A DNA stretch of 64,000 nt. Origin: Chromatiales bacterium (GTDB taxonomy: Bacteria; Pseudomonadota; Gammaproteobacteria; CAMYNG01). Each line of letters opens with the position of its first letter. Position 1 is the first letter of the stretch. The position numbers and the translations under genes were made by a program. Below, one piece after another: positions 5,479 to 37,959 of this stretch. The stretch lies in the NCBI GenBank assembly GCA_027005735.1, contig JALTLF010000218.1, positions 22,935 through 86,934 of the forward strand. The letters are read 5' to 3'. The notes under the pieces are model-generated. The model did no database searches and had not been told where the DNA came from. It saw only the letters and a list, made by a program, of their open reading frames with translations.

Positions 5479-5560
5479 GGGCGCATGTTAATGCCCACGT
5501 AAACTCTCAGCAATTTGTGGGCCCGGCCGATAAATATCAGGGTAGACGGTCACCGCAGGG

Positions 5561-10523: not shown

Positions 10524-10853
10524 ATGGCAAGCCGTAAAGATATTGAAAAATTCGACGACGGGCTGGCGCTGGAAGAGGCAAAACCGCGCCTCAAGAAGCC
10601 GCCCATGTATAAAGTTGTGCTGCTAAATGACGACTACACCCCTATGGAGTTTGTCGTGCACATCCTCGAGACCTTTTTTGGCATGGATCGTGTAAAGGCA
10701 ACCCGTGTGATGTGGATGGTCCACACCGAAGGCAAGGGGGTCTGTGGCGTCTTCACACGGGATATCGCCGAGACCAAGGTGGTGCAGGTCAACGAGTTCT
10801 CGCGCAAGCATGAGCATCCGCTGATGTGCACCCTCGAAGAATCCGATGGGTGA
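10524..10853 (+). CDS. clpS: ATP-dependent Clp protease adaptor ClpS
   Basis: [23 protein letters not shown] is the ClpS core; the gene lies immediately upstream of clpA. Confidence 0.9.
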
Positions 10854-10859
10854 ACAGTT

Positions 10860-13127
10860 ATGTTGAACAAGGAACTGGAAGCAGCACTCAACCAGGCTTT
10901 TCGCGAGGCCCGCGAGAAGGATCACGAATTCATGACCGTCGAGCACCTTCTGCTGGCCCTGCTCGACAACGACTCCGCGCGTGACGTGCTCACCGCCTGC
11001 GGCGCCGACATGAACGCCCTGCGCCGCGACCTGCAGGCCTTCCTCGAGGAGACCACGCCACTGTTGCCGCCCAACGACGAGCGCGAGACGCAGCCGACGC
11101 TGGGCTTCCAGCGCGTCCTGCAGCGCGCCGTGTTCCACGTGCAGTCCTCGGGCAAGCAGGAAGTCACCGGTGCCAACGTGCTGGTGGCCATCTTCAGCGA
11201 GCAGGAATCCCAGGCGGTGTATTTCCTCAAGCGCCAGGACATCTCCCGCCTCGACGTGGTCAACTACATCGCCCACGGTATTTCCAAGATCGGCGAGGAC
11301 GAGGGCCAGGCGGGTGAGGGCGTGGCCGGCAACGAGGAAGGTGGCGATACCCGCCAGAGCCCGCTGGAGCAGTTCACCAGCAACCTGAACGAACTTGCCC
11401 GTGCCGGCAAGATCGATCCCCTCATCGGCCGCAAGCACGAAATCGAACGCACCATCCAGATCCTCTGCCGTCGGCGCAAGAACAATCCGCTGTTCGTCGG
11501 CGAGGCCGGGGTGGGCAAGACGGCGCTGGCCGAGGGCCTGGCGAAGATGATTGTCGACGGCGAGGTGCCCGAGATCCTGCGGGATGCCACCATCTACTCC
11601 CTCGACATGGGTACCCTGCTGGCCGGCACCAAGTATCGCGGCGACTTCGAGAAGCGCCTCAAGGCCATCCTCGCCCAGCTCAAGCGCGAGGAAGGCGCCA
11701 TCCTGTTCATCGACGAGATCCATACCATCATCGGCGCGGGCGCGGCCTCGGGCGGCGCCATGGACGCCTCCAACCTGGTCAAGCCGGTGCTGGCCTCGGG
11801 GGAACTCAAGTGCATCGGTTCCACCACCTACCAGGAGTACCGCGGTATCTTCGAGAAGGACCGCGCCCTGGCGCGACGCTTCCAGAAGGTGGACGTCAAG
11901 GAACCGAGCGTCGAGGAGACCGTCCAGATCCTCGAGGGTCTCAAGAGCCGCTTCGAGGAACACCACGAGGTGCGCTATACGCGCCAGGCACTCCGGAGCG
12001 CCGCCGAGCTGGCGGAGCGCTACATCAATGATCGCCACCTGCCCGACAAGGCGGTGGACGTCATCGACGAGGCCGGCGCCAACCAGCGCATGCAGCCGGC
12101 CTCGAAGCGCAGGAAGACCATCGGCGTGCGTGAAGTGGAGTCGGTGGTGTCGAAGATCGCCCGTATTCCGCCGAAGTCCGTGTCGCGGGACGACAAGCAG
12201 GCGCTGCGCAACCTCGAGCGGGATCTCAAGCTGGTGATCTACGGGCAGGACGAAGCCATCGAGTCGCTCGCCACCGCCATCAAGCTGGCGCGCTCGGGTC
12301 TGTCCAGCGAGCACAAGCCCATCGGCTCCTTCCTGTTCGCCGGTCCCACCGGCGTGGGCAAGACCGAGGTCACGCGGCAACTGGCGCGCACGCTGGGTAT
12401 CGAGCTGATCCGCTTCGACATGTCCGAGTACATGGAACGCCATACCGTCTCGCGCCTCATCGGCGCGCCGCCGGGCTACGTCGGCTACGACCAGGGCGGC
12501 CTGCTCACCGAGGAAATCAACAAGCATCCCCATGCGGTGTTGCTGCTCGACGAGATCGAAAAGGCCCACCCGGATGTCTTCAACCTGCTCCTGCAGGTCA
12601 TGGACCACGGCACCCTGACGGACAACAACGGCCGCAAGGCCGATTTCCGCAACGTCATCATCGTCATGACCAGCAACGCCGGCGCGGACCGGCTGGATCG
12701 CCCGTCCATCGGCTTCACCCAGCAGGACCACAGCACGGATACCACCGAGGTGATTAACAAGGTCTTCTCGCCGGAATTCCGCAACCGCCTCGACGGCATC
12801 ATCCAGTTCCGCGCCCTGCAGCCGGACACCATCGGCAAGGTAGTGGACAAGTTCATCTTCGAACTGGAAGGCCAACTGGAGGAGAAGGGCGTCACGCTGA
12901 GCGTGGACGACGAGGCACGCACCTGGCTCGCCCTGCACGGCTACGATCCGAAGATGGGCGCCCGTCCCATGGCGCGGACCATACAGGAACACATCAAGAA
13001 GCCGCTCGCGGAGGAACTGTTGTTCGGCAAGCTTGCCCAGGGTGGGCACATTGCCATCAGCATTCGCGACGACGCCCTGCATTTCGAACTCACGGGCAAG
13101 AAGGAAGAGAAGGTCACCAGCGACTGA
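10860..13127 (+). CDS. clpA: ATP-dependent Clp protease ATP-binding subunit ClpA
   Basis: N-domain plus two AAA+ modules (GEAGVGKT and GPTGVGKT Walker A), 755 aa, directly following clpS. The minus-strand ORF 10623..13082 is a mirror artefact. Confidence 0.92.
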   Translation: MLNKELEAALNQAFREAREKDHEFMTVEHLLLALLDNDSARDVLTACGADMNALRRDLQAFLEETTPLLPPNDERETQPTLGFQRVLQRAVFHVQSSGKQEVTGANVLVAIFSEQESQAVYFLKRQDISRLDVVNYIAHGISKIGEDEGQAGEGVAGNEEGGDTRQSPLEQFTSNLNELARAGKIDPLIGRKHEIERTIQILCRRRKNNPLFVGEAGVGKTALAEGLAKMIVDGEVPEILRDATIYSLDMGTLLAGTKYRGDFEKRLKAILAQLKREEGAILFIDEIHTIIGAGAASGGAMDASNLVKPVLASGELKCIGSTTYQEYRGIFEKDRALARRFQKVDVKEPSVEETVQILEGLKSRFEEHHEVRYTRQALRSAAELAERYINDRHLPDKAVDVIDEAGANQRMQPASKRRKTIGVREVESVVSKIARIPPKSVSRDDKQALRNLERDLKLVIYGQDEAIESLATAIKLARSGLSSEHKPIGSFLFAGPTGVGKTEVTRQLARTLGIELIRFDMSEYMERHTVSRLIGAPPGYVGYDQGGLLTEEINKHPHAVLLLDEIEKAHPDVFNLLLQVMDHGTLTDNNGRKADFRNVIIVMTSNAGADRLDRPSIGFTQQDHSTDTTEVINKVFSPEFRNRLDGIIQFRALQPDTIGKVVDKFIFELEGQLEEKGVTLSVDDEARTWLALHGYDPKMGARPMARTIQEHIKKPLAEELLFGKLAQGGHIAISIRDDALHFELTGKKEEKVTSD

Positions 13128-13306: not shown

Positions 13307-13525
13307 CTATCTGCTGCGGAAGACGATGCGGCCCTTGCTGAGATCGTAGGGGGTCAGCTGAACGGTGACGCGGTCACCGGTGAGGATACGGATGTAGTGC
13401 TTGCGCATCTTGCCGGAGATATGGGCCGTGACGACGTGGCCGTTGTCCAGCTCGACGCGGAACATGGTGTTGGGCAGGGTGTCGATCACCGTGCCTTCCA
13501 TCTCGATGTGTTCTTCCTTTGCCAT
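13307..13525 (-). CDS. infA: Translation initiation factor IF-1
   Basis: [72 protein letters not shown] is nearly identical to E. coli IF-1. Start taken at the internal M of ORF 13307..13546. Confidence 0.93.
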
Positions 13526-13652
13526 CAGGGTTAACTGCTCTTCCAACCACGGGTCTGAATTCAGCGCGCATCATGCCTGAATCGGCGTGCATTTTCAAAG
13601 CCGTTTTCCCCTCCGCCGGTCCCGGCCGGCGTACTTCATCGCCCCCCCTGCC

Positions 13653-13946
13653 TCAGAGCGCGTGACCGGCGAGGTCCGCCGGCGTCTCCCCGTGCGGGCT
13701 GTTCGCGTCGGCGGCGCGCGGCATGGCGCGCCACTGGATGCGACTCCAGGCGACGTGGGGATGCTGCACCCCGCGATCGATGAGCATCTCCATGCCCAGG
13801 AAACGGGAGATCCCTTCCATGCCCTCGATGCCCGCCAGCTCCGCGCGCAGGCGGGCGAGGTGGCGGGGATTGAGGTAGAGGAGCGTGGGCGCGACGCCGT
13901 GGCGGCGCCGGTAGTCGGTGGCAATGCGGTACAGGTAGCTCAGCAT
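13653..13946 (-). CDS. Hypothetical small protein (97 aa)
   Basis: Strong GC3 bias in this frame. It fills an otherwise ~500-bp gap between infA and bpt. No recognisable domain. Confidence 0.35.
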   Translation of the reverse strand: MLSYLYRIATDYRRRHGVAPTLLYLNPRHLARLRAELAGIEGMEGISRFLGMEMLIDRGVQHPHVAWSRIQWRAMPRAADANSPHGETPADLAGHAL

Positions 13947-14024
13947 GATGCCTCCTTCGGGCTGACGGGCGCGAACGGCGTTCGCATCCGCATGCCCGTC
14001 ATAGCGGCCTGCCGTCTTCGACCT

Positions 14025-14789
14025 TTAGACCGTCGCCGGGGTTCCACCCGCACCGTCCCCGTGCAGCTCCGCCTTCCAGTAGCGTCCATCGAAGGCCTCC
14101 AGGGGGCGGTAGCGGTTCTTGTAGGCCATCTTCGGGCATTCGGCGATCCAGTAGCCGAGGTAGAGCCACCGGCGCTCCAGCCGCACGGCTTGCCGTATCT
14201 GCCATAACACAGCATAGACGCCCAGCCCGCGGCGACCCTGATCGGGATCAAAGAAGGTGTAGACGGCCGACAGCGCGTCGCCGAGGTGATCGGTGACGGC
14301 CACCGCCAGCAGGCGGCCGTCCTCGCGGAATTCGTACAGACGGGTGTCGCTCCACGGACTGGAGATAAAGGCCATGTAGTGCTCGGGGGAATCCTGATCC
14401 ATGCCGCCGCCGCGATGGCGCGTGCTGATGTAGCGCCGGTAGAGGGCATAGTGCTCCTCGTCGAAACGTACCGGCCGTTGGTGGGTGGTGAGATGGGCGT
14501 TGCGTTTCCAGGTACGTCGCTGGCTGCGGCTGGCGACGAAGCGCGCCACCGGCACGCGCACCGGTACGCAGGCGTGACAGGTGGCGCAATGGGGTCGGTA
14601 GATGTGCTCCCCGCTGCGGCGAAAACCCAGCGCGGAGAGCCGGGTATAGAGCGCGTTGTCCATGCGCGCGGAGGGATCGGCAAACAGGGTGGTGGCCTCG
14701 CGGCCGGGCAGGTAACTGCATGCGTGGGGCACGGTGGCGTAGAAGTGCAACGACTCCAGACTGACGGGAATGTCCTTGCCGGCTTTCAT
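14025..14789 (-). CDS. bpt: Arginyl-tRNA--protein transferase (bacterial Bpt/Ate, Asp/Glu leucyltransferase family)
   Basis: [39 protein letters not shown]...[22 protein letters not shown]...YLGYWI is the Ate1/Bpt N- and C-domain signature. Start at the internal ATG (cat at 14787-14789), overlapping the aat stop by 4 nt. The upstream part of ORF 14025..15407 is read-through artefact. Confidence 0.85.
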
Positions 14790-15529
14790 GCGAATCGCTT
14801 TCCGTTTACCACCTCGTCCCTGATGCGCGGGTCCAGTTGCCAGCGCGATGGCCGAGCCGCTTCGGCGGTGTGGCGCGCCAGCAGGGCGTTGAACTGGCGA
14901 CGCGGGATCATCTCCGCGCCGAAACGCTCGAGGTGCGCGGTATGGACCTGGCAGTCGATGAGACGCACGCCGCGCCCCTGCAACTGCGCCACCATGTGCG
15001 CGAAGGCCACCTTGGAGGCATCGCTGACGCGGGCGAACATGGACTCGCCGTAGAACACCCGGCCGATGGCCACGCCGTAGAGGCCGCCGACGAGCTGGCC
15101 GTCCTGCCAGCACTCCATGGAGTGCGCCCAGCCCGCCGCGTGCAACCTTGCATAAGCATAGATCATTTCCTCGCCGATCCAGCTGCCCGGTTCCGCGTCC
15201 TGCCGGCGGGGCGCGGCGCAGGCGCGCATGACGTCCTCGAAGGCGGTGTCCATGCTCAAACGGAAGGGATCGCGGCGCAGGGTCTTGCGCAGGCTGCGCG
15301 AGAGGTGCAGTTTTTCCGGGAACAGCACCATGCGGGGATCCGGCGACCACCACAGGATGGGTTGCGGTTCGCTGTACCAGGGGAAGATCCCCCGGCGATA
15401 GGCGCACAGCAGTCGTTCGACGCCGAGATCGCCGCCCACCGCGAGCAGGCCGTCGGGTTTGCGCAGGGCGCTCTCGACGTCGGGGAAGCCGCAGGGATCG
15501 CGGGGATCGAGCCAGGGGATGTCCAGCAT
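14786..15529 (-). CDS. aat: Leucyl/phenylalanyl-tRNA--protein transferase
   Basis: [69 protein letters not shown] is colinear with E. coli Aat. Start at the internal ATG of ORF 14786..16057. Confidence 0.88.
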
Positions 15530-26621: not shown

Positions 26622-26709
26622 GGAGAGCTGGCTGAGTGGTCGAAAGCGGCGGTCTTGAAAACCGTTGACCGGCGACGGTCCGGGGGTTCGAATCCCTCGC
26701 TCTCCGCCA
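26622..26709 (+). tRNA. serT: tRNA-Ser (anticodon UGA), type II tRNA with long variable arm, CCA encoded
   Basis: GGAGAGCTGGCTGAGTGGTCGAAAGCGGCGGTCTTGAAAACCGTTGACCGGCGACGGTCCGGGGGTTCGAATCCCTCGCTCTCCGCCA. Acceptor stem GGAGAGC/GCTCTCC, anticodon loop CU-UGA-AA, long variable arm, T-loop GGTTCGAATCC. Closely parallels E. coli serT. Confidence 0.9.
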
Positions 26710-27142: not shown

Positions 27143-27538
27143 ATGTCGCGGATCAAGATCTACAGGCTCGGTCGCAACAGCAGTAATGATTATGTCATCA
27201 ACGACGACACGGTCTCGCGTTCACACGCGGAATACATCGTCTGTGATGATGGCCGCCTGTACGTAACCGATTGTCACAGTACCAGTGGCACCTTCGTTTT
27301 CCGCGGTGAGACCTGGCAGAAGATCCGCCAGGACTTCGTGGCCCCCGATGAGAAGCTGCGCTTCGGCGAGGCCGAGGTGAGCCCCGTGGAACTGGCATCT
27401 CGCGCAAAGGCCAGTGGACCCACGGCGGCAACCGTGGCCCCGCAGGCCGGCGAGAGTGAAAAGCTTTCCGAAGCACCGGAGGCGGGCACCGGTTTCGTGC
27501 GCAATCCCGAAACGGGCGAAATCATTTCCAAACAATAA
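27143..27538 (+). CDS. FHA-domain protein (small, N-terminal FHA, disordered C-tail)
   Basis: YRLGRNSSNDYVINDDTVSRSHAEYIVCDDGRLYVTDCHSTSGTFV has the FHA hallmarks (GR, SRxH, S-x-NGT-like TSGTFV). Confidence 0.8.
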   Translation: MSRIKIYRLGRNSSNDYVINDDTVSRSHAEYIVCDDGRLYVTDCHSTSGTFVFRGETWQKIRQDFVAPDEKLRFGEAEVSPVELASRAKASGPTAATVAPQAGESEKLSEAPEAGTGFVRNPETGEIISKQ

Positions 27539-27558: not shown

Positions 27559-28314
27559 ATGGGAAATCGCACCACCGTATTACTGGTCAGCTCGGGTGCC
27601 GGCCTTGTTTTCATTCTGCTGCTCAGCCTGGTCCTCGACAGCGGTTTCTTTGCCGATTTTCTCCTCGATCGAAACACGAGCTGGGCGCCGTACCCGTTCA
27701 CCATCCAGAATGTCATGTGGCTGGTATTCTTCTTTGGCCTGGGCGAACTGTATCTTCGCCACGAGAGCGGCAGCGATGACCTGCGGCAGATTTCGCTGGG
27801 TCTCCTGCCCGAGGACGAAACCAGTCTCCTGCGCCCGAAAGACCTGCCGGCACTCTACCGCAAGGTACGCCAGTCCGATCCGGACAGGCGGCATTTTTTA
27901 CAACGCATGTTGACGCGCTGTATCCTGCAGTTTCAGAGCAGTAATTCCGTGGACCAGGCAAATACCCTGTTCAATTCCAGCCTCGAGCTGTACCAGCACG
28001 AGGTGGAGCTGCGCTATAACATGTTGCGCTATATCGTCTGGCTCATCCCGACCCTGGGGTTCATCGGCACGGTTGTGGGGATCGCGCTCGCCCTCAGTGA
28101 TGCCGGCGCGGCAAAGGATTTCCAGGATCCGGAACTGCTCAAGGTCCTGACCAGGAGCCTGGGCGTGGCGTTTTATACTACCTTGCTGGCGCTGATGATG
28201 TCGGCGGTGCTGGTATTTCTCATGCACGTGATCGAAGGCCGGGAAGAACGCGTGTTGAATACGGTTGGTCAATATACGCTCGATAACCTGATCAACCGGC
28301 TCTATGAAAAATAA
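27559..28314 (+). CDS. MotA/TolQ/ExbB-like proton-channel family membrane protein (orphan, no ExbD/TolR/MotB partner)
   Basis: Topology is an N-terminal TM pair, a cytoplasmic loop, then two C-terminal TMs. WLIPTLGFIGTVVGIALAL matches the conserved LGLLGTVxG channel helix of ExbB/TolQ, followed by a second amphipathic TM (LGVAFYTTLLALMMSAVLVFL). Confidence 0.55.
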   Translation: MGNRTTVLLVSSGAGLVFILLLSLVLDSGFFADFLLDRNTSWAPYPFTIQNVMWLVFFFGLGELYLRHESGSDDLRQISLGLLPEDETSLLRPKDLPALYRKVRQSDPDRRHFLQRMLTRCILQFQSSNSVDQANTLFNSSLELYQHEVELRYNMLRYIVWLIPTLGFIGTVVGIALALSDAGAAKDFQDPELLKVLTRSLGVAFYTTLLALMMSAVLVFLMHVIEGREERVLNTVGQYTLDNLINRLYEK

Positions 28315-28409: not shown

Positions 28410-29003
28410 ATGAGTGACTCTGACTACGATTCACCTACCCGCAAGGTAGGATCTCCGACACGGCGCAATACGGTCAAATCGGGTGACGCGGGCGCCACCC
28501 GTCCGGCAGGAAGAGGTGGCGCCGCTGATAGCGGTGAGACAAAGACCCAGATCTATCGGCCGGGGCGTCGGCGGGATGCCGATGCCGACACCCAGTCCAA
28601 CCCCACCGGCAGTAGCGCGCGTCGCGCCGCCGCCTCCGCCATGGACGATCCCCCCGCGGGCTGGCTGGTGGTCATCAGGGGACCGGGGATGGGCAGTGTC
28701 GTGACCATCGGCATAGGCAGCAATTCCATCGGCCGGGATGCCAGCGAACGCATCAGCCTGGACTTCGGCGATGAGACCATTTCCCGTGAAGGCCATGCCA
28801 TCGTAACCTACGATCCGCGTGGCAAGAAGTTCTATATCCAGCATGGGGGCGGCAAGAACCTGACCTATCTCAACAACGAACCCGTGCTGGCCCCCGCCGA
28901 ACTGGAAGCGGGTGCGGAGATCGTCATCGGGGAGACTGCGCTGCGCTTCATGCCGCTGTGTGGGCCCGACTTCAACTGGGAAGATCTCGAGACGGATCGG
29001 TAA
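28410..29003 (+). CDS. FHA-domain protein (disordered Arg/Ser/Thr-rich N-terminus, C-terminal FHA)
   Basis: WLVVIRGPGMGSVVTIGIGSNSIGRDASERISLDFGDETISREGHAIVTYD...GGKNLTYLNNEPV is an FHA core. Confidence 0.8.
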   Translation: MSDSDYDSPTRKVGSPTRRNTVKSGDAGATRPAGRGGAADSGETKTQIYRPGRRRDADADTQSNPTGSSARRAAASAMDDPPAGWLVVIRGPGMGSVVTIGIGSNSIGRDASERISLDFGDETISREGHAIVTYDPRGKKFYIQHGGGKNLTYLNNEPVLAPAELEAGAEIVIGETALRFMPLCGPDFNWEDLETDR

Positions 29004-29025
29004 GGACAGCAAAGAAAGCGAGCGC

Positions 29026-29769
29026 ATGTTTCAGGTTAAAGGCGATCAAATCATCGGCGCCCGGACGCGCCAGGAAGACAGTTTTCGCATTGAACAACTG
29101 GATACCACGGCACAGCACCTCATGGTCATCACTGACGGCATGGGTGGTCATGCAGGTGGCGCGCAGGCAAGCCGCATCGTGGCAGACAGCTTCGTCGATG
29201 CATGGCTTGGTGGAGAAGGTACAACGGTGGATCGCCTGCACGATGCGCTGTTTTACGCCAACGACCAGGTGGCCCGGGCGATAGAAGACGATCCGGAGCT
29301 GGTCGACATGGGAACGACCCTGCTGGCCTGTGTGCTGGATGGCAGTGAGTTGTCCTGGGTCAGCGTGGGTGATTCCATACTGTGGGTTTACCGTGACGGT
29401 AAGCTGCTGCGCATCAACGACGATCACTCCATGGCCCCGGTAATCGATGGCCTGGTGGAAATCGGTCGCATGACACCCGAAGAGGCCGCCAGTGACCCCA
29501 GGCGGAACCAGTTGCGTTCAGTAGTGACGGGTGAGGACATACCGCTCATCGATATCAGCAAGACGCCTCTCGTGCTGGAGGACGCTGATATCCTGCTGCT
29601 CGCCACGGACGGCATCCTCACATTGGGTGAGGACGAAATTATTTCCGTGCTGCGGGATAGCCGCCCAGCGGGACCCGAGGCATGCGCCGGAGCGATTTTC
29701 GCCGCCATTGAATCACATGCGGAGCCACAGCAGGACAATACGACCCTGATAGTTGCTTCGCAAGACTGA
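29026..29769 (+). CDS. PP2C-family Ser/Thr protein phosphatase
   Basis: RQEDSF...VITDGMGGHAGG, LLATDGI and the C-terminal DNTTLIV are metal-binding motifs of bacterial PP2C (Stp/PppA-like). Start at the internal ATG of ORF 28912..29769. Confidence 0.85.
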   Translation: MFQVKGDQIIGARTRQEDSFRIEQLDTTAQHLMVITDGMGGHAGGAQASRIVADSFVDAWLGGEGTTVDRLHDALFYANDQVARAIEDDPELVDMGTTLLACVLDGSELSWVSVGDSILWVYRDGKLLRINDDHSMAPVIDGLVEIGRMTPEEAASDPRRNQLRSVVTGEDIPLIDISKTPLVLEDADILLLATDGILTLGEDEIISVLRDSRPAGPEACAGAIFAAIESHAEPQQDNTTLIVASQD

Positions 29770-29814: not shown

Positions 29815-31299
29815 ATGAAAACATCCATCCTGAAGAAGATCCTTGTTTCGACCCTGATCATCCTCTCGTGCCTTGTGCCGATATCGTTCGCCGCCGCGGA
29901 TGCCATTCTCGACCAGACAGGAAAGGCCCTGGTCCGGATCCATGTTCTGCATGGCGGCAAGGTAGAGAGTGAGCAGATCGGTTTCATCATCAACAATGAA
30001 ACGGGTCATGTGGCAACCTACTCAGGCAGCCTGGGCAAGGACAGCACGGTCAGCATTACCACCGCCAGCAACCATGAACTCAAGGCAGAGGTCGTCTTGC
30101 TGCGCCCCGAGGAGGGCGTGGCCATCTTGCGCACCAATCTCGCCGGGATGGATGTGGACTCCGTCCTGTTTGCAAAGGATCCCCTCGAAGATGGACGTAC
30201 GGTGGCAACAGCGGTTCTTTCCGGTAGTGCGCCGGACACGGAGATCGGTATACGCCGCGGCAGTGTCGGGCAAATGGTGCCGGCGGTGGGCACTGGCAAG
30301 CCGGTGCTCATTCAGCACAACGCGCTGGCAAATACCCGCAGCTTTGGCGCGCCGCTGTTCAACAACTGTGGTGAAGTTGGCGGCCTGCTGATACCGGAAA
30401 AACGCGCGCTGACGGCCATTTTCGGCGTGCCCGATGCACAGGAAGAGGGCGTTGCCTACGCGATAAGTGGCGAATGGTTGAAGAATCTCCTGCTGGCGAA
30501 CGATATTCCGTATTACACCGCGGAAGAGACCTGTGCCAGCGAGATCGAGCAGGTCGCCCAGGCCGAGGGGGATGTGGAGCGGGCCGAGGAAGAGATCCGC
30601 GCCGCCAACGAACGCCTGGACGAACTGCGGCGCCAGCTCGAAGAGGCCGGACAGGCCAGCGCCGAGGAGCGGGCGCGCCTGCAGGACGAAATAAAGAAGG
30701 CCGAAGCCTCGGTACAGGCGCTGAAGAAGAAGCAGAAAGAGCTCGAGGCGCAGGCGGCGGAGCTGGCCGAGCGGGCCGAGGCCGTGCGCAAACGCGAGCG
30801 GCAGGTGACCATCGCCGCCGCCGTCGTTGTTGCCATCCTGTTACTGCTGGTTTTACTCGCATGGCGGCGCAAGCGCCGTGCCCTGCGGGAGAAACAGGCG
30901 GCGGAGCGGGCACGCCGGGAAACGGAAGGGGAGCTGGAAAAGAAACTGGCAGAAGAGGCCATGTTGAAGGAGATCCCCGACGTGCTGCTCGAAGCGGAGT
31001 CACCGGACGGGGAGAAATTTGCAGTCAAGATCCCGGGGCCCAATCTTGGCGGCGCGGAAGGGGCGACAGTAGGTCGCAATCCCGAGATGAGTAATTTCGT
31101 CATCAATCATCCCGATGTGTCCCGCACGCATTTCCGCCTGCTGTCAGTACGCAAGCAACTTCTGATCGAAGACCTGGGATCGACCAATGGTACCAGCATC
31201 AACGGCATCCTGCTTGGTGAAGGCGAACTGGAAGCGGTCATGAATGGCACCGTTATCAGGATCGGGGACCTGCGCATCAAGGTGACGATAAAACAATGA
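29815..31299 (+). CDS. Signal peptide / degenerate trypsin-like (S1) domain / periplasmic coiled coil / TM helix / cytoplasmic FHA domain
   Basis: Cleavable N-terminal signal peptide and an S1-like fold. Compared with the downstream paralogue the catalytic positions are altered (EGVAILRT in place of IDVALLRT; RSFGAPLF in place of GNSGGPLF). Heptad-rich EIEQVAQAEGDVERAEEEIRAANERLDELRRQLEEAG..., TM IAAAVVVAILLLLVLLAW, C-terminal FHA (ATVGRNPEMSNFVINHPDVSRTHFRLL...GSTNGTSINGILL). Confidence 0.75.
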   Translation: MKTSILKKILVSTLIILSCLVPISFAAADAILDQTGKALVRIHVLHGGKVESEQIGFIINNETGHVATYSGSLGKDSTVSITTASNHELKAEVVLLRPEEGVAILRTNLAGMDVDSVLFAKDPLEDGRTVATAVLSGSAPDTEIGIRRGSVGQMVPAVGTGKPVLIQHNALANTRSFGAPLFNNCGEVGGLLIPEKRALTAIFGVPDAQEEGVAYAISGEWLKNLLLANDIPYYTAEETCASEIEQVAQAEGDVERAEEEIRAANERLDELRRQLEEAGQASAEERARLQDEIKKAEASVQALKKKQKELEAQAAELAERAEAVRKRERQVTIAAAVVVAILLLLVLLAWRRKRRALREKQAAERARRETEGELEKKLAEEAMLKEIPDVLLEAESPDGEKFAVKIPGPNLGGAEGATVGRNPEMSNFVINHPDVSRTHFRLLSVRKQLLIEDLGSTNGTSINGILLGEGELEAVMNGTVIRIGDLRIKVTIKQ

Positions 31300-31318
31300 A
31301 TCACAGTGGAACTGGATA

Positions 31319-32638
31319 ATGTCTGAGAAACTCATGCGGCGCTCCCTGCTTCTCGGGGCTTGTCTCCTGTGTCTGCTGCTGGTGCCAGCGAGTGTGCTTG
31401 CGCGGCAGTTCGACGTGGTCAAGCTTGAGAAGAGCGTGGTTCGTGTCATCACCAACAACGGGACCGGCACCGGTTTTGTCATCAACAAGGATGGCTATGT
31501 TCTCACCAATCACCACGTCATCGAAGGCGCCTCACGTTTTGTCGTGATGTCAAGTTACCTGGCACAACCGGTCGAGGCCGAGGTGGTGTTTTTCGATCGC
31601 CAGATCGACGTCGCGCTTCTTCGTACCCGCGGTCTCAATCTGCCGCCGGTAACACTGACCACCGTGACACCGGAAAAGAGCGACCAGGTTTTCGCGTTCG
31701 GTTTCCCCGGTCTCGCCGACTACGGCTCCTGGGAAGAGATTGAAGGCATTGCCCTGGATGTCACCATTACCGATGGCGTCCTGAGCCGCATTTTTGATCA
31801 GCCCTGGGCGGGAAATTCCACGGTGATCACCATTCTCCAGCACAACGCCCAGATCAATCCGGGCAACAGCGGTGGCCCGCTGTTCGATCTATGCGGGCGC
31901 GTGATCGGTATCAATACCCAGCAGGGTGTCGGCGGCCAGGGGATTTTCTGGGCCTCGCACATCAAGGAGGCAATGGGCCTGCTGAAGCAGAAGAACATCC
32001 GTTTCAAGGTCACCAGCAAGCCCTGCAAGGAAGTGACGCCGGCCGCGCCACCTCCGCCGCCGGCACCGGCGCCGAAGGTGATTGTGCCTCCGCAGTCGCG
32101 TTACACCCCCTGGCTGGTGGCGCTTTCCATTCTCGTTGCCACCGCGGCACTGTTGCTGGCGCTCAGAAAGCCGCGCGAGCGCATCGTGGAAGTGACCAAG
32201 CGCTACGCGAGTGGTATCACGCGGCGCATTACCGGGGCAAGGAAAGACACGCAAAGCGAGGGGGGCGCCACTGTCAGGGCAGGTGCAGGCGGGAAGAGCC
32301 AGGGGAAAAAGGCTGGCAGGACGGGCTTGTTGCTTTCCGGGTTTACCAGCGGGGGCAAGCCAATACGCGTCGAGATCACCGATCAGCAACTCGCCGGTCT
32401 GGGGTTCAGTCTGGGGCGTCATCCCAACCTGGTGGACTTCGTTATCGCCGACGACTCCCTGTCACGGCGTCATTTGCGCATCAGCGGGGGACATGGGCGC
32501 TACTACGTGGAAGACCTCAACTCCAGCAACGGGGTATTGATCAACGGCAAGCCGGCGAAACCCTTCGCCAGGGTCGAGATTGTGCCGGGTGACAGGCTGA
32601 CGCTGGGAGACGTGGAAATCGATGTGTCCCGGATTTAA
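31319..32638 (+). CDS. Signal peptide / HtrA- or trypsin-like serine protease (intact triad) / TM helix / cytoplasmic FHA domain
   Basis: Catalytic His (GTGFVINKDGYVLTNHHVIEGA), Asp (IDVALLRT) and Ser (INPGNSGGPLFD) are all present. Pro-rich linker, TM WLVALSILVATAALLLAL, C-terminal FHA (FSLGRHPNLVDFVIADDSLSRRHLRI...SSNGVLINGKP). Confidence 0.8.
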   Translation: MSEKLMRRSLLLGACLLCLLLVPASVLARQFDVVKLEKSVVRVITNNGTGTGFVINKDGYVLTNHHVIEGASRFVVMSSYLAQPVEAEVVFFDRQIDVALLRTRGLNLPPVTLTTVTPEKSDQVFAFGFPGLADYGSWEEIEGIALDVTITDGVLSRIFDQPWAGNSTVITILQHNAQINPGNSGGPLFDLCGRVIGINTQQGVGGQGIFWASHIKEAMGLLKQKNIRFKVTSKPCKEVTPAAPPPPPAPAPKVIVPPQSRYTPWLVALSILVATAALLLALRKPRERIVEVTKRYASGITRRITGARKDTQSEGGATVRAGAGGKSQGKKAGRTGLLLSGFTSGGKPIRVEITDQQLAGLGFSLGRHPNLVDFVIADDSLSRRHLRISGGHGRYYVEDLNSSNGVLINGKPAKPFARVEIVPGDRLTLGDVEIDVSRI

Positions 32639-32689: not shown

Positions 32690-33511
32690 GTGAGACGCCG
32701 CAACCGGGAGATCAATATCTTCAACGTTTCGGCGCTGGACCTGTTTGCCTCGGCGCTGGGGGCCTTCATACTCATCACGGTGGTCCTGTTCCCCTACTTT
32801 CCAAATACGGGAGACTCGCCGGAGCGGGTGGCGACCTGCAAGCAGGCCCTGCAGGAATGCCGCAAGGAAAAACAGCGTCTCGAACGGGAACTGGCCAGGG
32901 CACAATTCCCCCATCTCGACCTTGTCATTGCCCTGGATGTCACCGGCAGCATGAAAGAACAGATCGACGGTCTGAAGTCGGAACTACAGCAACTGACCAT
33001 GGTGCTGGGAAAACTGGCCCCTTCCCTCGGTATTGGCGTGGTTGCCTTTGGCGACCGAAAATGGGAACAACCCATCTTCACCTATCGTCTCAGGGAGGTT
33101 GGCGGCTCCCCTGCCAATTTCCGGGATCTGCAGCGATTCATCGATGGCCTGGCACCCAACATGGGCCTGGGTTCGGGGGATAACGATGATTACCCCGAAG
33201 CCGTTGCGCGCGCGTTAGATGAAGCCATAGCGATGCCGTGGCGGGCGCAGGCAAAGAAACGGATCATTGTCGTCATCACCGACAATCCGGCCTACCCGGA
33301 AAGGATTAGCTATTCTTTACGAAGGGCAGAGGAATTTGCGCGTACACCGGGACAACAGGTGTCCACCGTTCTGGTGATTTCGCAAAATGATCCCGAAATC
33401 TATGGGCCGGCACGGGAATTTTTGGCTAAACTGGCCCGTAAGGGGAAAGGAGAAGCCGTCAAGGCCGGCGGCTCCATGACTGCGGCACTGCTGTTGGCAT
33501 TGCTGGGATAA
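32690..33511 (+). CDS. Membrane-anchored periplasmic von Willebrand factor A (vWA) domain protein
   Basis: Basic N-terminus, TM LFASALGAFILITVVLFPYF, then LVIALDVTGSM (MIDAS DxSxS-type motif) and a Rossmann-like vWA fold (IGVVAFGD..., IIVVITDNPA). Confidence 0.75.
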   Translation: MRRRNREINIFNVSALDLFASALGAFILITVVLFPYFPNTGDSPERVATCKQALQECRKEKQRLERELARAQFPHLDLVIALDVTGSMKEQIDGLKSELQQLTMVLGKLAPSLGIGVVAFGDRKWEQPIFTYRLREVGGSPANFRDLQRFIDGLAPNMGLGSGDNDDYPEAVARALDEAIAMPWRAQAKKRIIVVITDNPAYPERISYSLRRAEEFARTPGQQVSTVLVISQNDPEIYGPAREFLAKLARKGKGEAVKAGGSMTAALLLALLG

Positions 33512-33553: not shown

Positions 33554-34528
33554 ATGAATGATAACCATACGACAGTGAGAGAGAAAGGCGTATCGGGCTG
33601 GCTCATTACGGCCATACTTGGTCTGATGTTTGGTTCAACGGCGGCCTATGCGGATCAACCGTCCGATACGGCGACCTTCGATGCGGAATTCCAGGTCGCT
33701 CTGGAAGAGCAACCCGATCCTGCCCGTCTGCAGGCCATGCTACGGCTTGCCGAGGCAAAGAGCAGCAGCGGTGGAGGCGGCGGCAGCGCGCCCGTGGCGA
33801 GCGGGGGAAATGTCTGGTTCGCCATCTTTCGCACTACCGACAACCGACAGCGCTGGGTACGCAACACTTCGCTCCAGGAGTTCACGAATTCCATTCGCAA
33901 GGCCTGGAGGGACGGCTATCATCTCAAGCGTGTCAACTACGCCGATGGGCGCTGGGTGGGCATCTTCGTCGACACCAAGGTGGGTTGTGCCGAACGTAAC
34001 GGTTTTGAAACCGCTGGTTCACGCGAGGCTTTCCTCAAGGCCGTAAAGCAACGTTGGGTCGATGGTTATACCCTGGTAGATGCGGCCTATGGCGAAGGCA
34101 CCTGGTTTGGTAACTTCTGTGAGGATCCCCGTGACAATACCTATGTCACGGCGAGTGACTGGGATGCCCTGAGCAACCTGATCAGCAAGAAATGGGACCA
34201 GGACAGCCAGTGGCACGTGCTCTCAGCAGACCGTGGTCCCGACGGCTGGTTGGCGGTATTCGTCAAGGGGGAGTGCCCGGGACGCAATGGCTGGAGCATC
34301 TATGATTCCCAGGCCGCCCTGGAAGAAGCACTGCGCGACAGCAACAACGACGGTTTCGCGGTTCGCAACATGGCCTACACCAATGGAAACTGGATTGCGA
34401 TGCGTTGCGAAGAGGATGTCAGCAACATCTATGAAACTGCCGCCAGCTGGCCGCAGTTGAAGGAAAAAATCAAGCAGCGCTGGGGTCAGGGCCTAGACCT
34501 GATCGCCATCGACTACGGTCGGCGCTAG
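33554..34528 (+). CDS. Secreted protein made of five tandem copies of an uncharacterised ~55-aa W/G/aromatic repeat; paralogue of the kinase ectodomain
   Basis: Signal peptide (ITAILGLMFGSTAAYA). Repeats: NVWFAIFRTTDNRQRWVRNTSLQEFTNSIRKAWRDGYHLKRVNY..., ERNGFETAGSREAFLKAVKQRWVDGYTLVDAAYGEGTWFGNF, NTYVTASDWDALSNLISKKWDQDSQWHVLSA..., RNGWSIYDSQAALEEALRDSNNDGFAVRNMAYTNGNWIAM, SNIYETAASWPQLKEKIKQRWGQGLDLIAIDYG. About 60-70% identical to residues ~485-725 of the kinase. Confidence 0.7.
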   Translation: MNDNHTTVREKGVSGWLITAILGLMFGSTAAYADQPSDTATFDAEFQVALEEQPDPARLQAMLRLAEAKSSSGGGGGSAPVASGGNVWFAIFRTTDNRQRWVRNTSLQEFTNSIRKAWRDGYHLKRVNYADGRWVGIFVDTKVGCAERNGFETAGSREAFLKAVKQRWVDGYTLVDAAYGEGTWFGNFCEDPRDNTYVTASDWDALSNLISKKWDQDSQWHVLSADRGPDGWLAVFVKGECPGRNGWSIYDSQAALEEALRDSNNDGFAVRNMAYTNGNWIAMRCEEDVSNIYETAASWPQLKEKIKQRWGQGLDLIAIDYGRR

Positions 34529-34839
34529 CTCGCATATCCACACTTGGGGGCGGTCCCGGTCTCCGGGACCGCGCCCTGCCAGCGTGGAACCTTCCACGGC
34601 AGGCCCGGCAGGACGCCGCCACGGGAATACCGTCGTGCCCCCGTGTCGGTGGGGGCCGAAGGGCGCGCGCCTGGCCCGAGTCATTGAAATTGCGGGGATT
34701 TTCAGGTTAGATAAGCCACGTGGCGAGGATGTTGTCGGTAACGGCGAGCTTCCACGCCCGGCGCCATGCTCACATGGCCACTGGATCTACCCCCGGGATC
34801 CCGCTGGTCGCGGTACATTAAAATCATAATGAAGTCGCC

Positions 34840-37017
34840 ATGAACGAACATCACCATTCCCTGCCGGAGGGCTACCAGCTTTTCGAATATCGCATCGATG
34901 GTATTCTGGGCACCGGTGGCTTCGGGATCACCTACCTTGGGTGGGACAGCAATCTCGACAAGCAGGTGGCCATCAAGGAGTACCTGCCCGGTGAATACGC
35001 CGTGCGTCTCGAAGGCGAGACCGTGGCGCCCCGGTCCACCGAGGACGAAGACGACTATGCCTGGGGGCTGGAGCGTTTTCTCGACGAGGCCCGTGCCCTG
35101 GCCCGCTTCGATCATCCCAATATCAACCGCGTACTGCGTTTTTTCGAAGCCAACAACACGGCCTACCTGGTGCTGGAGTACGTCGAGGGCAGGACGCTGG
35201 CCAAGGTTCTCAAGTCCGGCTACAGCTTCAGCGAAGCCGAGATCACCGAAATGCTGGGCGCCATGCTGTCCGGCCTGGCGGTGGTGCACCGTGCCGGCTA
35301 TGTTCACCGCGACATCAAGCCGGCCAATATCATGTTGCGCCCGGACGGCCAGCCGGTATTGCTGGATTTCGGCGCTGCCCGCCAGGCCATCGGCCGCAAG
35401 ACACAGAGCATTACCACGGTCCTCACCCCCGGCTATGCGCCCATCGAGCAGTATGACCAGCATGCCGAGGACATCGGCCCGTGGACCGATATTTACGCAC
35501 TCGGCATGGTCTTCTACCGCTGCGTCACCGGGATCTCGGACGGTGAACTGGTCGATGCCGTGGCGCGCGCGCGCATGCAGCGCAAGGGAGAAGATCCCCT
35601 CGCGCCGGCGGTGATCGCCGCGCAGGGCAAGTACAGTCCGAAGTTGCTCGAAGCCATCGACTGGGCAGTGGCGGTCAACGAGGAGGATCGTCCCCAGAAC
35701 GTCTCCGAACTCACCTCGATTCTGCCGGCCTTCGAAAACCGCACCCAGGTCTCGGGACGCGGTGATACCCAGGCCCCCACGCAGGCCGCCGGCCAGGCCC
35801 CGGGCGGGCGGCATCCGGCGGATCAGAAGACCCGGGCGGTCGCGCCGGTGGGCATGACCAGTGGTGCCCGCTGGGCACTTGGCGTGACGCTGGCGCTGGT
35901 TCTCATCGGCATTGCCCTGGGTGCGGCGTGGGTCTTCTGGGCCGGCCCGCCCGATGGAGGGGAGTCCGGCGGCCCGCTTGCCGGTGGGCCCGCGCCCGGT
36001 CCGCAGGCCACGGATCCCACGCCCGCGGTGGCCTCGCCCGTGGAAGTCGCGCCGGCCTACCTGGTGGTGCGCAGCAATGTCTCCGGCGATCACGTCATCG
36101 TCGATGGTCGGGATCTCGGGCACAGCGGGACGCGCCGTCACGAACTGGCACCGGGTGAACATGAAATACGGGTGGAGAAAAAGGGTTACATCCCCTGGAA
36201 GCGGACGCTGACGCTGGAGAGTGGCAAGACCCTCACGGTCAGGGCGCGCCTGCGTCCCCTCGCCGGGGTGCCACCGGTGGCCGGCGGGGGCCGCAGGGGC
36301 CACTGGTTTGCCGTGTTCAGGTCGACGGACAACCGCCAGCGCTGGGTACGCAACAGTTCACTCCAGGAGTTCACGGCTTCCATCCAGAAGGGCTGGGAAG
36401 ACAACTACCACCTGAGCCGCGTGATCTACAGCCGTAATACCTGGGTCGGGGTTTTCGTTGACCCGGCGGTGGGCTGCGCCAATCGAAACGGCTACGAGGT
36501 GGCGAGTACGCGCAGCGAGTTCATTAATCGTATCAAGGAGCGCTGGAAGGATGGTTTCACGCTCGTGGACATGGCCTACGGCGAGGGCGTGTGGTTTGGA
36601 AACTTCTGTGAGGACGCGCGTGGCAATACCTATGCCACGGCATCCACCTGGGATGCGCTGGCGAAAAAGATCAGCCAGAAATGGAACAAGGACAGCGATT
36701 GGCATGTCATCTCGGTGGAGCGAGGCAGGGGCGGCTGGATGGCGGTCTTCGTCAAGGGGCTGTGCCCGGGGCGCAACGGCTGGAACCGTGTCGGCTCCAG
36801 CGCGGAGCTGGAAAGGGAACTCCGGCAGGGTAGCCGCGAGGGGTTTTCGGTACGCAATATCCGCTACACCGACGGCGCCTGGTATGCCCTGCGTTGCGAG
36901 GACGGGATGCACAACATCTATGAAACCGCCAGCAGTTGGGAGGAAATGAAGAAAAAGATCAGTACGCGCTGGAGCCAGAAACTGGATCTCGTGGCGCTGG
37001 ATTACGGCCCCAACTGA
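34840..37017 (+). CDS. Hanks-type Ser/Thr protein kinase / TM / periplasmic PEGA domain / five-repeat ectodomain
   Basis: GTGGFGITYLG...VAIKE (P-loop and VAIK Lys), HRDIKPANIML, DFGAA, TPGYAPIEQ. TM WALGVTLALVLIGIALGAAWVFW. PEGA-like YLVVRSNVSGDHVIVDGRDLGHSGTRRHELAPGEHEIRVEKKGYIPWKRTLTL. Five repeats HWFAVFRSTDNRQRWVRNSSLQEF... to ...LDLVALDYGPN. Confidence 0.85.
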   Translation: MNEHHHSLPEGYQLFEYRIDGILGTGGFGITYLGWDSNLDKQVAIKEYLPGEYAVRLEGETVAPRSTEDEDDYAWGLERFLDEARALARFDHPNINRVLRFFEANNTAYLVLEYVEGRTLAKVLKSGYSFSEAEITEMLGAMLSGLAVVHRAGYVHRDIKPANIMLRPDGQPVLLDFGAARQAIGRKTQSITTVLTPGYAPIEQYDQHAEDIGPWTDIYALGMVFYRCVTGISDGELVDAVARARMQRKGEDPLAPAVIAAQGKYSPKLLEAIDWAVAVNEEDRPQNVSELTSILPAFENRTQVSGRGDTQAPTQAAGQAPGGRHPADQKTRAVAPVGMTSGARWALGVTLALVLIGIALGAAWVFWAGPPDGGESGGPLAGGPAPGPQATDPTPAVASPVEVAPAYLVVRSNVSGDHVIVDGRDLGHSGTRRHELAPGEHEIRVEKKGYIPWKRTLTLESGKTLTVRARLRPLAGVPPVAGGGRRGHWFAVFRSTDNRQRWVRNSSLQEFTASIQKGWEDNYHLSRVIYSRNTWVGVFVDPAVGCANRNGYEVASTRSEFINRIKERWKDGFTLVDMAYGEGVWFGNFCEDARGNTYATASTWDALAKKISQKWNKDSDWHVISVERGRGGWMAVFVKGLCPGRNGWNRVGSSAELERELRQGSREGFSVRNIRYTDGAWYALRCEDGMHNIYETASSWEEMKKKISTRWSQKLDLVALDYGPN

Positions 37018-37311
37018 CGCGCGCACGCGGATCTTGCCGCAGCACATGCACAATTGTGGTGCGTGGAGATGGGGCCAGGCGGCCGGGCGGGCACGTTTCG
37101 CCTGTGCCTGTATCAGGACTGGGGTTTCGCGTATGGTTTGCGCTAGAATTACCCGGCCGACCGCCCATGCCGGTTTCCCCGGGAAGGGCGTAGGATAGCC
37201 GGGGCCCGCACAGTGCCAGCGGGCGGGGCAGCTGGAACACCAACCCCAATATAGACTTATGATGGTTTTTCCCGATCGCCCCCGTGGGCGTCAATGCTGG
37301 AGGAAGTCACC

Positions 37312-37959
37312 ATGATCAGGGTCCTGCTGGTGGATGACCACGATCTGGTGCGTACCGGGATCCGGCGCCTGCTGGAGGACGTCAACGATATCGAGATCGT
37401 CGGCGAGGCGGCCAGTGGCGAGGAGGCGGTCAACCAGGCACGGACGCAGATGCCCGACGTGGTGTTGATGGATCTCTCCATGCCGGGCATGGGGGGGATC
37501 GAGGCGACGCGCAAGCTGCTGCAACACCATCCCGATATCCGCGTCATCGTGGTGACCATGCACGACGACGAACTCTATCCCCAGCGGCTGCTCAAGGCCG
37601 GCGCGCGCGGCTATCTCACCAAGGGGGCCAGCGCCACCGAGATCGTGCGTGCCATCCGCGAGGTCATGGCCAACCGCCGTTACCTGAGTCCCGACGTCGC
37701 CCAGCAGATCGCCCTGTCCACCTCCACCGATGGCGTCGCCTCACCCTTTGCCAACCTCTCCGAACGCGAGCTGCAGGTCATGATGATGCTCATGGAAGGC
37801 TGCAAGATCGGCGACATCTCCGAGCGCCTGTGCCTGAGTCCCAAGACCGTCAGCACCTACCGCTACCGGCTGTATGACAAGCTCGGCGTGAACAACGACA
37901 TGGAACTGGCGCGGCTGGCCATCCTGCACGGCGTGGTGGAGGGCAACGGCCCGCACTGA
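37312..37959 (+). CDS. uvrY: NarL/FixJ-family response regulator UvrY/GacA/SirA orthologue
   Basis: MIRVLLVDDHDLVRTGIRRLLEDVNDIEIVGEAASGEEAV...VVLMDLSMPGMGGIEATRKL and a LuxR HTH (ERELQVMMMLMEGCKIGDISERLCLSPKTVSTYRYRLYDKLG) are colinear with E. coli UvrY. Confidence 0.85.
   Translation: MIRVLLVDDHDLVRTGIRRLLEDVNDIEIVGEAASGEEAVNQARTQMPDVVLMDLSMPGMGGIEATRKLLQHHPDIRVIVVTMHDDELYPQRLLKAGARGYLTKGASATEIVRAIREVMANRRYLSPDVAQQIALSTSTDGVASPFANLSERELQVMMMLMEGCKIGDISERLCLSPKTVSTYRYRLYDKLGVNNDMELARLAILHGVVEGNGPH

Follow-up and report, generated by a model that had tools for sequence, protein, structure and literature searches.

What does a pair of membrane-spanning, trypsin-like proteins do when only one of the two retains a catalytic triad and both carry an FHA domain, a reader of phosphothreonine marks, on the far side of the membrane? 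The question is raised by two genes at positions 29815-32638 of a 64,000-nucleotide stretch of a Chromatiales bacterium contig (JALTLF010000218.1), which we analyzed as a whole and refer to as the window. The proteins, P1 and P2, are encoded 19 nucleotides apart on the same (forward) strand, in exactly the open reading frames that an earlier note, made from the sequence alone, had described as tandem paralogues; by BLASTP they are related in both the protease domain (26% identity, E=7e-7) and the FHA domain (31% identity, E=2e-10). The reading we favor, with confidence only slightly above even, is that P1 and P2 are the protease module of an envelope system in which phosphothreonine marks control extracytoplasmic proteolysis by an active/dead pair.

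An HtrA-type protease beside a pseudoprotease

P2 (31319-32638, 439 residues) comprises a signal-like segment, an HtrA protease domain of active type, a Pro-rich linker, a transmembrane (TM) helix, a disordered linker and a cytoplasmic FHA domain. Pfam recognizes Trypsin_2 (residues 50-198, E=1e-29) and FHA (residues 364-430, E=5e-15). The protease domain (residues 40-232, 31436-32014), delimited by alignment with Pseudomonas MucD (8k2y, E=1e-21) and with its own family, also aligns with plant Deg1. Its LTNHHV, DVALLR and GNSGGPLF segments are the His, Asp and Ser motifs of MucD and Deg1, which places the triad at His66 (31514-31516), Asp97 (31607-31609) and Ser184 (31868-31870). As the earlier note had read, the downstream copy keeps all three residues, and they are kept in 125 of 125 P2-type sequences in the family alignment. 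P2 is thus an HtrA-type protease with an intact triad, predicted to be active, yet it belongs to none of the named NCBIfam groups: the HtrA-type models all score far under their cutoffs (degP_htrA_DO, 99 bits vs 416; DegS, E=2e-20 and far below cutoff), and MarP reaches 88 bits against a cutoff of 250, which leaves P2 outside that family. Neither Pfam nor NCBIfam finds a PDZ domain in P1 or P2. In an AlphaFold2 model of P2 (mean predicted local distance difference test score, pLDDT, 82.6), the protease and FHA domains are confident, and the Pro-rich periplasmic linker and the cytoplasmic linker are both disordered, with the TM helix between them.

P1 (29815-31299, 494 residues) consists of a signal-like segment, a domain of HtrA fold, a helical stalk, a TM helix and an FHA domain. 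The Pfam match to FHA is strong (residues 418-484, E=2e-13), and that to Trypsin_2 barely exceeds the gathering score (residues 56-191, E=1e-6). In alignments, Gly71 (30025-30027), Gly101 (30115-30117) and Phe177 (30343-30345) occupy the His, Asp and Ser columns. The earlier note had called the upstream copy degenerate from the loss of Asp and Ser, which holds, but had missed that His is gone as well. An AlphaFold2 model built on 20 family members (mean pLDDT 88.3) begins with a β-rich domain (residues 39-235, 29929-30519); two helices follow, one spanning 243-280 and the other 283-385, and then an FHA sandwich (389-493). Foldseek places the modeled ectodomain on the protease domains of HtrA1, DegS, DegP and MarP with target-normalized TM-scores of 0.78-0.84 and E values of ~1e-12, at 16-20% identity. 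Because the model matches HtrA folds and the entire triad is replaced, we assign P1 as a predicted pseudoenzyme of the HtrA fold, not a protease. Structure prediction and alignment to HtrA proteins, the check that the earlier note had proposed, therefore separate a P2 with its triad intact from a P1 without one.

The stalk of P1 (residues 243-330, 30541-30804) corresponds to the ~90-residue coiled coil of the earlier note. It is ~88 residues long and rich in Glu, Ala and Arg, and it is predicted as two helices (243-280 and 283-330) with a break at 281-282; hydrophobic residues fill 63% of the heptad a/d positions. In the model, the second helix runs unbroken through the TM segment.

Both proteins have just two hydrophobic segments, one N-terminal and signal-like and one internal, at residues 331-353 of P1 (30805-30873; from hydrophobicity) and 264-285 of P2 (32108-32173; from hydrophobicity and the model). 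Lys/Arg stands before each N-terminal segment and small residues come after it (...SFAAADA, ...SVLA), and clusters of Lys and Arg stand immediately behind the internal segments (RRKRR in P1, RKPRER in P2). Moreover, each family has an invariant Cys pair (C185/C240 in P1, C192/C236 in P2), which would fit a disulfide in an oxidizing compartment and thus gives additional support for an extracytoplasmic head. These features agree with the order of protease, single TM helix and FHA, and with the placement of the two domains on opposite sides of the membrane, that the earlier note had proposed: the protease head is predicted to lie outside and the FHA domain inside, whether the N-terminal segment is cut or stays as an anchor. 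The FHA domains, delimited by Pfam, alignment and the models, span residues 389-493 of P1 (30979-31293; signature GR/SRTH/STNG) and 336-438 of P2 (32324-32632; GR/SRRH/SSNG). Phosphothreonine-binding residues are invariant or nearly so across both families, and both proteins are predicted to carry a canonical FHA domain of the phosphothreonine-binding type across a single TM helix. The TM-FHA half of P1 (residues 332-486) also resembles positions 6-154 of the 158-position FhaB model of NCBIfam, below its cutoff (E=7e-11).

Two families, one catalytically dead

P2 has a large family, with 4228 matches at E<=1e-5 among the candidates scored; Trypsin_2 and FHA are both present in 119 of its 120 best homologues. 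For P1, a word-indexed search returned only 25 matches, every one lacking the Ser, and a profile run against 1.84 billion cluster representatives detected 972 proteins at E<=1e-30. We counted residues in the best 148 of these representatives, clustered at 50% identity. None has the His-Asp-Ser combination; 146 lack Ser, with Y, F, H, A, V, I or others in its place, and the remaining two are gapped at that position. Internal TM segments are found in 143 of the 146 Ser-less proteins, where a median of ~176 residues separates the dead active site from the membrane. Because Ser is absent so uniformly and the membrane segment is so consistently kept, the P1-type proteins appear to be an old, diverse family with a long stalk of its own. 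By these sequence criteria, the dead copy has long been conserved as a lineage and is not the product of recent decay, and the suggestion in the earlier note that it serves as a scaffold or regulator fits such a history.

The note had also held that a protease fused to an FHA domain through a membrane span was not a described architecture. This agrees with the literature that we searched but overstates the case for the databases. In open-access literature, we found no description of the Tryp-TM-FHA architecture, of the pseudoprotease partner or of the operon; a 2008 catalogue lists one FHA-FHA-Tryp protein from Bacteroides thetaiotaomicron, with a domain order opposite to that of P2 (PMC2605481). 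Trypsin_2-TM-FHA proteins are, however, already deposited without a name, including in the cultured strains Azospirillum lipoferum 4B (WP_014189772.1, labeled ‘trypsin-like peptidase domain-containing protein’) and Chthoniobacter flavus Ellin428, and the architecture is not unprecedented there. The latter was the only useful locus from scans with back-translated patterns (GNSGGPL.D and others; P2 in genomes, the P2 alignment in metagenomes), which otherwise drew generic HtrA proteins matching in the protease domain only. The novelty lies in how the parts are joined: a protease and its conserved dead paralogue each carry an FHA reader across the membrane, and both are tied to a motor-like pair and to interchangeable receptor kinases.

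Conserved synteny and exchange of the protease

In the window, P1 and P2 lie within a same-strand run of genes that begins with FhaS (27143-27538), a small soluble FHA protein of 131 residues ending in an invariant RNPxTGE (Pfam FHA, E=1e-12; ortholog alignment). It is followed by a MotA/ExbB/TolQ-like channel subunit of 251 residues (27559-28314; MotA_ExbB, E=2e-12) with PTLGFIGTVVGIALAL and GVAFYTTLLAL helices conserved in an alignment of eight orthologs; by FhaL (28410-29003), a GarA/OdhI-like protein of 197 residues with an invariant Thr in its disordered N-terminus ahead of the FHA domain (Pfam FHA, E=2e-10; NCBIfam OdhI, E=5e-10, and FhaB, E=2e-11, both below cutoff); and by a PP2C-type Ser/Thr phosphatase of 247 residues (29026-29769; PP2C_2, E=3e-12; the Stp1/IreP-type NCBIfam model, E=1e-37, below cutoff). 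Downstream of P2 are a 273-residue vWA protein with an Asp-bearing TM helix (32690-33511; Pfam and ortholog alignments) and a secreted protein of 324 residues (33554-34528). Intergenic gaps from FhaS to the secreted protein are 19-95 nucleotides, and after a further 311 nucleotides comes a receptor Ser/Thr kinase of 725 residues (34840-37017), composed of the kinase domain, a TM helix, PEGA and a novel repeated ectodomain (Pkinase, E=9e-37; PEGA, E=2e-14). The secreted protein is a soluble copy of the kinase's sensor ectodomain, with 63% identity over 248 residues to the C-terminal ectodomain, and is a possible decoy or co-receptor for the kinase ligand. The kinase ectodomain is internally repeated and matches no Pfam family above threshold (DUF7477, E=0.003). 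The RNPxTGE end of FhaS and the N-terminal invariant-Thr region of FhaL (E.KT.IYRPG) are candidate docking or phospho-acceptor peptides.

We compared 11 loci, the window and ten obtained by exact-protein look-ups of P2 and P1 homologues. Ten of the 11 (the window, L016-L019, L101-L103, L106 and L107) share a core set, sometimes in permuted order: FhaS, the MotA/ExbB-like subunit, FhaL, P1, an active protease-TM-FHA protein, an Asp-TM protein and one to five kinases. A PP2C gene is present in nine of these ten, and none was seen within the L102 stretch. Because P2 orthologues in the sampled loci are just 35-47% identical to P2 of the window, close relatedness does not account for the shared synteny; a further contig, from the metagenome-assembled genome GCA_026998135.1, has a gene order identical to that of the window. 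Genetically, P1 and P2 are locked to FhaS and FhaL, the PP2C phosphatase, the MotA/ExbB-TolQ-like channel subunit, the Asp-TM vWA protein and the receptor kinases. With the FHA residues intact, this linkage upholds the connection between an active/pseudoenzyme pair and Ser/Thr phospho-signaling that the earlier note had drawn.

In two core loci, the active S1 partner has been exchanged and the pseudo-S1 protein kept. L106 encodes a 791-residue protein with a signal peptide, an M4 thermolysin-like metalloprotease domain with HExxH (Peptidase_M4_C, E=1e-31), a TM helix and FHA (5379-7754, reverse strand), adjoining an FTP-propeptide gene. In L107, a protein of 450 residues combines a signal peptide, an M48-like domain (HExxH), a TM helix and FHA (13514-14866, reverse strand). 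The strongest case for extracytoplasmic proteolysis as the selected function comes from this exchange of one intact protease for another on the TM-FHA chassis, beside the same pseudoprotease.

The core is constant, and the kinases, one to about five per locus, vary in their ectodomains: FGE-sulfatase, Sel1, PEGA-SoxYZ and ankyrin domains occur, and the window kinase has PEGA plus the repeated domain without a Pfam family. In L019 (10163-17338), a bAvd gene, a diversity-generating retroelement accessory, separates two kinase-FGE-sulfatase paralogues that share 95% identity at their 5' ends. Within the L019 stretch examined, we detected neither a reverse transcriptase nor a template/variable-repeat pair, the repeats there being kinase paralogy only.

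A candidate motor pair

The MotA/ExbB-like channel subunit and the Asp-TM vWA protein are linked to P1 and P2 as tightly as the kinase is, which changes the likely mechanism; the earlier note had overlooked both. The channel family scores above the PF01618 gathering threshold and is found in ten of the 11 loci, in keeping with the A subunit of a 5:2 motor. By sequence, the MotA-like protein matched nothing in the PDB.

The vWA protein has a basic N-terminal tail, a TM helix SALDLFASALGAFILI with Asp17 (32738-32740), a coiled coil and a periplasmic vWA domain with a DxTGS MIDAS-like motif. Its TM helix is near-invariant in all loci, with the pattern (R/K)xR(E/D)(I/V/L)NIFxxSALDLFASA(L/M)GAFILI...FPxFPN, and the Asp and the basic tail (mean net charge +2.6) are kept in all 120 homologues taken from 908 matches. 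The periplasmic part behind this helix is either vWA or a β-rich domain with a weak DUF2135 signature. Asp-helix genes fused to vWA or DUF2135-like domains are found in L018 (9450-10202), L019 (9354-10157), L101 (10216-10992) and L102 (10549-11376), and L106 has two in tandem, one vWA-like and one with only a coiled coil (10749-11594 and 11710-12504). No other tolR/exbD-like gene was seen beside the MotA/ExbB-like gene in the sampled loci. In TolR, ExbD and MotB, the N-terminus is inside, the helix has its Asp close to the cytoplasmic side, and the C-terminal domain is periplasmic. We infer from this shared layout, the invariant Asp and the genetic linkage that the vWA protein is a candidate TolR/ExbD-like partner of the channel subunit; the similarity in sequence is not significant. 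A 393-residue vWA+FHA protein, P0243, was considered as a Rosetta-stone fusion and rejected: its FHA part opens with MSRVRAI and closes with RNPETGEIV, as the small-FHA gene next to it does, and the fusion is probably a read-through or gene-calling artefact.

Proposed mechanism and alternatives

Fold, residues, topology indicators, conservation, synteny and module swapping are observed here, and from them we infer every step of the following mechanism. Receptor kinases with interchangeable ectodomains would detect a cue in the periplasm or at the surface and place phosphothreonine marks, which PP2C would erase. Four FHA domains, those of FhaS, FhaL, P1 and P2, would read the marks and assemble or rearrange P1 and P2 at the membrane. 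Docking would most likely take place at the cytoplasmic side of the TolQ-like pentamer, in the way that GltG is predicted to bind AglR. On the periplasmic side, P1 and P2 could form a mixed HtrA-like oligomer in which P2, or its M4 or M48 substitute, alone does the cutting, and in which P1, on its long helical stalk, may be an allosteric, substrate-holding or substrate-presenting, or inhibitory subunit. The TolQ-like/Asp-TM-vWA pair could act as a proton-driven 5:2 motor that provides force or positioning. The net result would be an ‘inside-out’ gating of proteolysis beyond the cytoplasm, for which the vWA protein, the kinase ectodomains, their soluble copy and envelope proteins are candidate substrates.

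Motor coupling is the part of this scheme that we hold as possible but doubtful, in part on account of simpler variants that lack MotA/ExbB in the stretch examined. An extension that we consider unlikely is a new envelope machine, in which a proton-driven 5:2 motor has an FHA-anchored protease and pseudoprotease in place of TonB/TolA-type transducers and performs an antigen-receptor-like surveillance. Docking of P1 and P2 on the motor would then be written and erased by PP2C and by interchangeable kinases, in some genomes possibly diversified by a retroelement, and such a machine, if real, would turn recognition outside the cell into mechanically gated periplasmic proteolysis.

Several observations weigh against the favored reading or its motor component. 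The sample of 11 loci is small, was picked from hit lists and is not random, and the P1-type gene of L108 is an orphan in a metabolic neighborhood. The cytoplasmic linker of the window P2 is rich in Thr and Ser, which would have suggested a phospho-acceptor, but this is not family-wide; the linker as a conserved phospho-acceptor was rejected on a median Thr fraction of 0.023 in P2-type and 0.028 in P1-type proteins. Profile comparison of the vWA N-terminus with the PDB gave chance matches only, and BLAST against TolR and ExbD of E. coli K-12 gave E ~1, with no significant likeness to ExbD, TolR or MotB. Finally, the variants of Azospirillum lipoferum 4B (L020; plasmid AZO_p4, 528454-547143) and Chthoniobacter flavus Ellin428 (L006) have neither P1 nor MotA/ExbB in the stretch examined. 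These simpler variants join Tryp-TM-FHA to PP2C, FHA proteins, vWA (fused to FHA in L020, which holds WP_014189772.1), kinases (one FHA-kinase-DUF805) and a Ppx/GppA-like protein, and motor coupling is therefore not obligatory for the protease-FHA module.

Signals could also run in the opposite direction, with the dead P1 head as a ligand or peptide sensor and with P1 and P2 as co-receptors that report the state of the envelope while their FHA domains recruit or scaffold kinases; the proteases would then be inputs. The analogies are RsgI9, whose S1C-like ectodomain binds cellulose, and DegS, which senses outer-membrane-protein tails. Foldseek does match the P1 model to the S1C-NTF2 ectodomain of RsgI9 (7sjy), whose protease-like domain is described as cellulose-binding (PMC12203970), and the cluster has no obvious cytoplasmic effector, so that the output might lie in distant targets of the kinases. 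However, the kinases have diverse sensor ectodomains of their own (FGE-sulfatase, Sel1, PEGA-SoxYZ, ankyrin and the novel repeat), and replacement of the active partner by other intact proteases points to selection for cutting rather than sensing; we judge this outside-in arrangement improbable. A role in conflict, in which hypervariable kinases detect a phage, predator or epibiont and unleash a toxic periplasmic protease otherwise checked by P1 and PP2C, leading to abortive infection or envelope remodeling, is compatible with our favored mechanism and, in our estimate, on the unlikely side. The paralogous kinases with swapped ectodomains, up to five in a locus, point in this direction, as do the FGE-sulfatase domain, a C-type-lectin fold that is a typical target of diversity-generating retroelements (PMC10907252), and the bAvd gene of L019. 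So do the position of the window cluster by a tRNA gene with lower GC, an rve integrase-like gene near the L016 cluster, transposase, methylase and HNH genes near L101, and weak matches of the channel subunit to ZorA (in PADLOC, E of 3e-6 or worse). Yet PADLOC 2.0 calls no system and gives generic domain-level matches only (kinase to PD-T4-6/mad6; protease to RT-Protease/LmuA/Avs1b; channel to ZorA), the L103 cluster sits among housekeeping genes, and no reverse transcriptase was seen in the stretches examined.

Two further explanations are far less probable. The earlier note had likened the system to regulated intramembrane proteolysis (RIP) or anti-sigma-factor cleavage, in which P2, like DegS, would make the site-1 cut in a membrane regulator and so free a transcription factor. 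P2 is indeed HtrA/DegS-like in sequence, and a gene for a LuxR-type response regulator (receiver + GerE; 37294-37959) lies 276 nucleotides downstream of the window kinase on the same strand. This regulator is not conserved beside the cluster in other loci, however, P2 lacks the PDZ domain that gates DegS, and none of ten loci encodes a sigma factor, an anti-sigma factor, an RseP/site-2 protease or a membrane-tethered transcription factor; the analogy finds no support, and we regard such a cascade as very improbable. Least probable of all is that P1 and P2 are ordinary quality-control HtrA paralogues with incidental FHA anchors, the dead copy being a decaying duplicate. HtrA-family proteases are ubiquitous and often duplicated, but we disfavor this explanation because the dead copy forms a distinct and diverse family, with its own stalk, an intact FHA domain and a confident model, and because synteny is strict over genomes as distant as the P2 identities indicate.

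Relation to known systems

P2 has the TNxHV, D(V/L)A and GNSGGP motifs of the extracytoplasmic HtrA/DegP/DegS/MucD proteases (MEROPS S1C) and their chymotrypsin fold, and the two-barrel fold is indicated by sequence for P2 and by the AlphaFold2 model for P1. By contrast with these proteases, P1 and P2 have no PDZ domain and end in a TM helix and a cytoplasmic FHA domain, and P1 has no triad. MarP of Mycobacterium tuberculosis (Rv3671c), like P2, is a membrane-anchored periplasmic S1 protease without PDZ, and both sequence and fold matches connect the two; it differs in having its TM anchor at the N-terminus, no FHA domain and no known pseudoprotease partner. A precedent for P1 is RsgI9 of Clostridium thermocellum (7sjy), a single-pass signaling protein whose S1C-fold ectodomain is for binding, not catalysis, as described. 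RsgI9 differs in its cytoplasmic anti-sigma domain, its Gram-positive host, its lack of an active paralogous partner and its signaling via RseP/ClpXP.

The signaling layer of the cluster is of a known kinase/PP2C/FHA kind. In the Thr-phosphorylation pathway of the type VI secretion system (T6SS; PpkA/PppA/Fha1), a receptor Ser/Thr kinase, a PP2C phosphatase and an FHA reader control assembly of an envelope machine. That pathway also involves a vWA domain, and FHA in our cluster matches TagH-type NCBIfam models weakly. The T6SS pathway has no protease, our cluster has four FHA proteins, and no T6SS core or structural genes are among the neighbors in any sampled locus. The four domain types vWA, Ser/Thr kinase, FHA and PP2C occur together in operons of Deinococcus (DRA0331-0334) and, with ArnA/ArnB, of archaea, where an FHA-vWA partnership is documented; these operons are cytoplasmic and have no protease, pseudoprotease or MotA/ExbB-like subunit. 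Among actinobacterial FHA proteins, FhaB/FipA (Rv0019c) resembles the C-terminal half of P1 in its TM-FHA arrangement, and GarA/OdhI resembles FhaL in its N-terminal Thr region and FHA domain, but these proteins have no extracytoplasmic domain, and P1 and FhaL score under the family cutoffs.

The motor layer matches a class that was proposed recently and is uncharacterized. For vWA proteins that are tethered by a TM helix and occur together with orphan tolQ genes, insertion of a TolR-like Asp ‘transpore helix’ into the pentamer has been proposed (PMC12204202, Mol Biol Evol 2025). Shared with our loci are an orphan tolQ/exbB-like gene without tolR/exbD, a vWA protein with an Asp helix and, sometimes, heterologous pairs as in L106. 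Kinases, proteases and FHA proteins are unmentioned there, and we liken the families by description, not by sequence. In Myxococcus gliding, the FHA and TM part of GltG is predicted to bind the pentamer of AglR, a TolQ-like protein, and GltG has been compared with TolA (PMC11761067). Like P1 and P2, GltG of the GltG/AglRQS machinery is bitopic, with a cytoplasmic FHA domain by the TM helix and a long periplasmic extension. Unlike them, it has its FHA domain at the N-terminus and its periplasmic part, with a TonB-C-like head, at the C-terminus, and the machinery as described has no kinase or PP2C.

Genomic surroundings

A tRNA-Ser(TGA) gene (26622-26709, forward strand) stands directly upstream of the cluster. 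GC content is 0.58-0.60 across 26-34 kb, compared with 0.63-0.70 in most of the remaining window. The adjoining tRNA, a possible island boundary, and the low GC suggest that the cluster is a horizontally acquired island. Its flanks contain the housekeeping genes for FtsK, RarA/MgsA, CrcB, SerRS and a Bax1-I family protein. A scan for promoters and terminators gave nothing above shuffled expectation. Long antisense open reading frames overlie real genes on the reverse strand (34702-36303, 30359-31003, 28431-29027 and others), reaching 533 residues in the one for the kinase; such frames are artefacts of the kind usual in high-GC DNA and not genes.

Implications

Modules of Ser/Thr kinases, FHA proteins and PP2C phosphatases are common in bacteria, and yet their outputs are mostly unknown. 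Joining phospho-mark readers to a protease and its dead copy by a single membrane span offers a testable ‘inside-out’ route of control, and P1 and P2 are a natural active/pseudoenzyme pair in which allosteric control of HtrA-type proteases could be studied. More broadly, linkage of an orphan TolQ-like subunit with an Asp-helix vWA protein ties the cluster to the newly proposed vWA force transducers, and the variability of the kinase arrays may point to a recognition system. The size of the family and the presence of simpler variants in cultured strains make these possibilities experimentally addressable.

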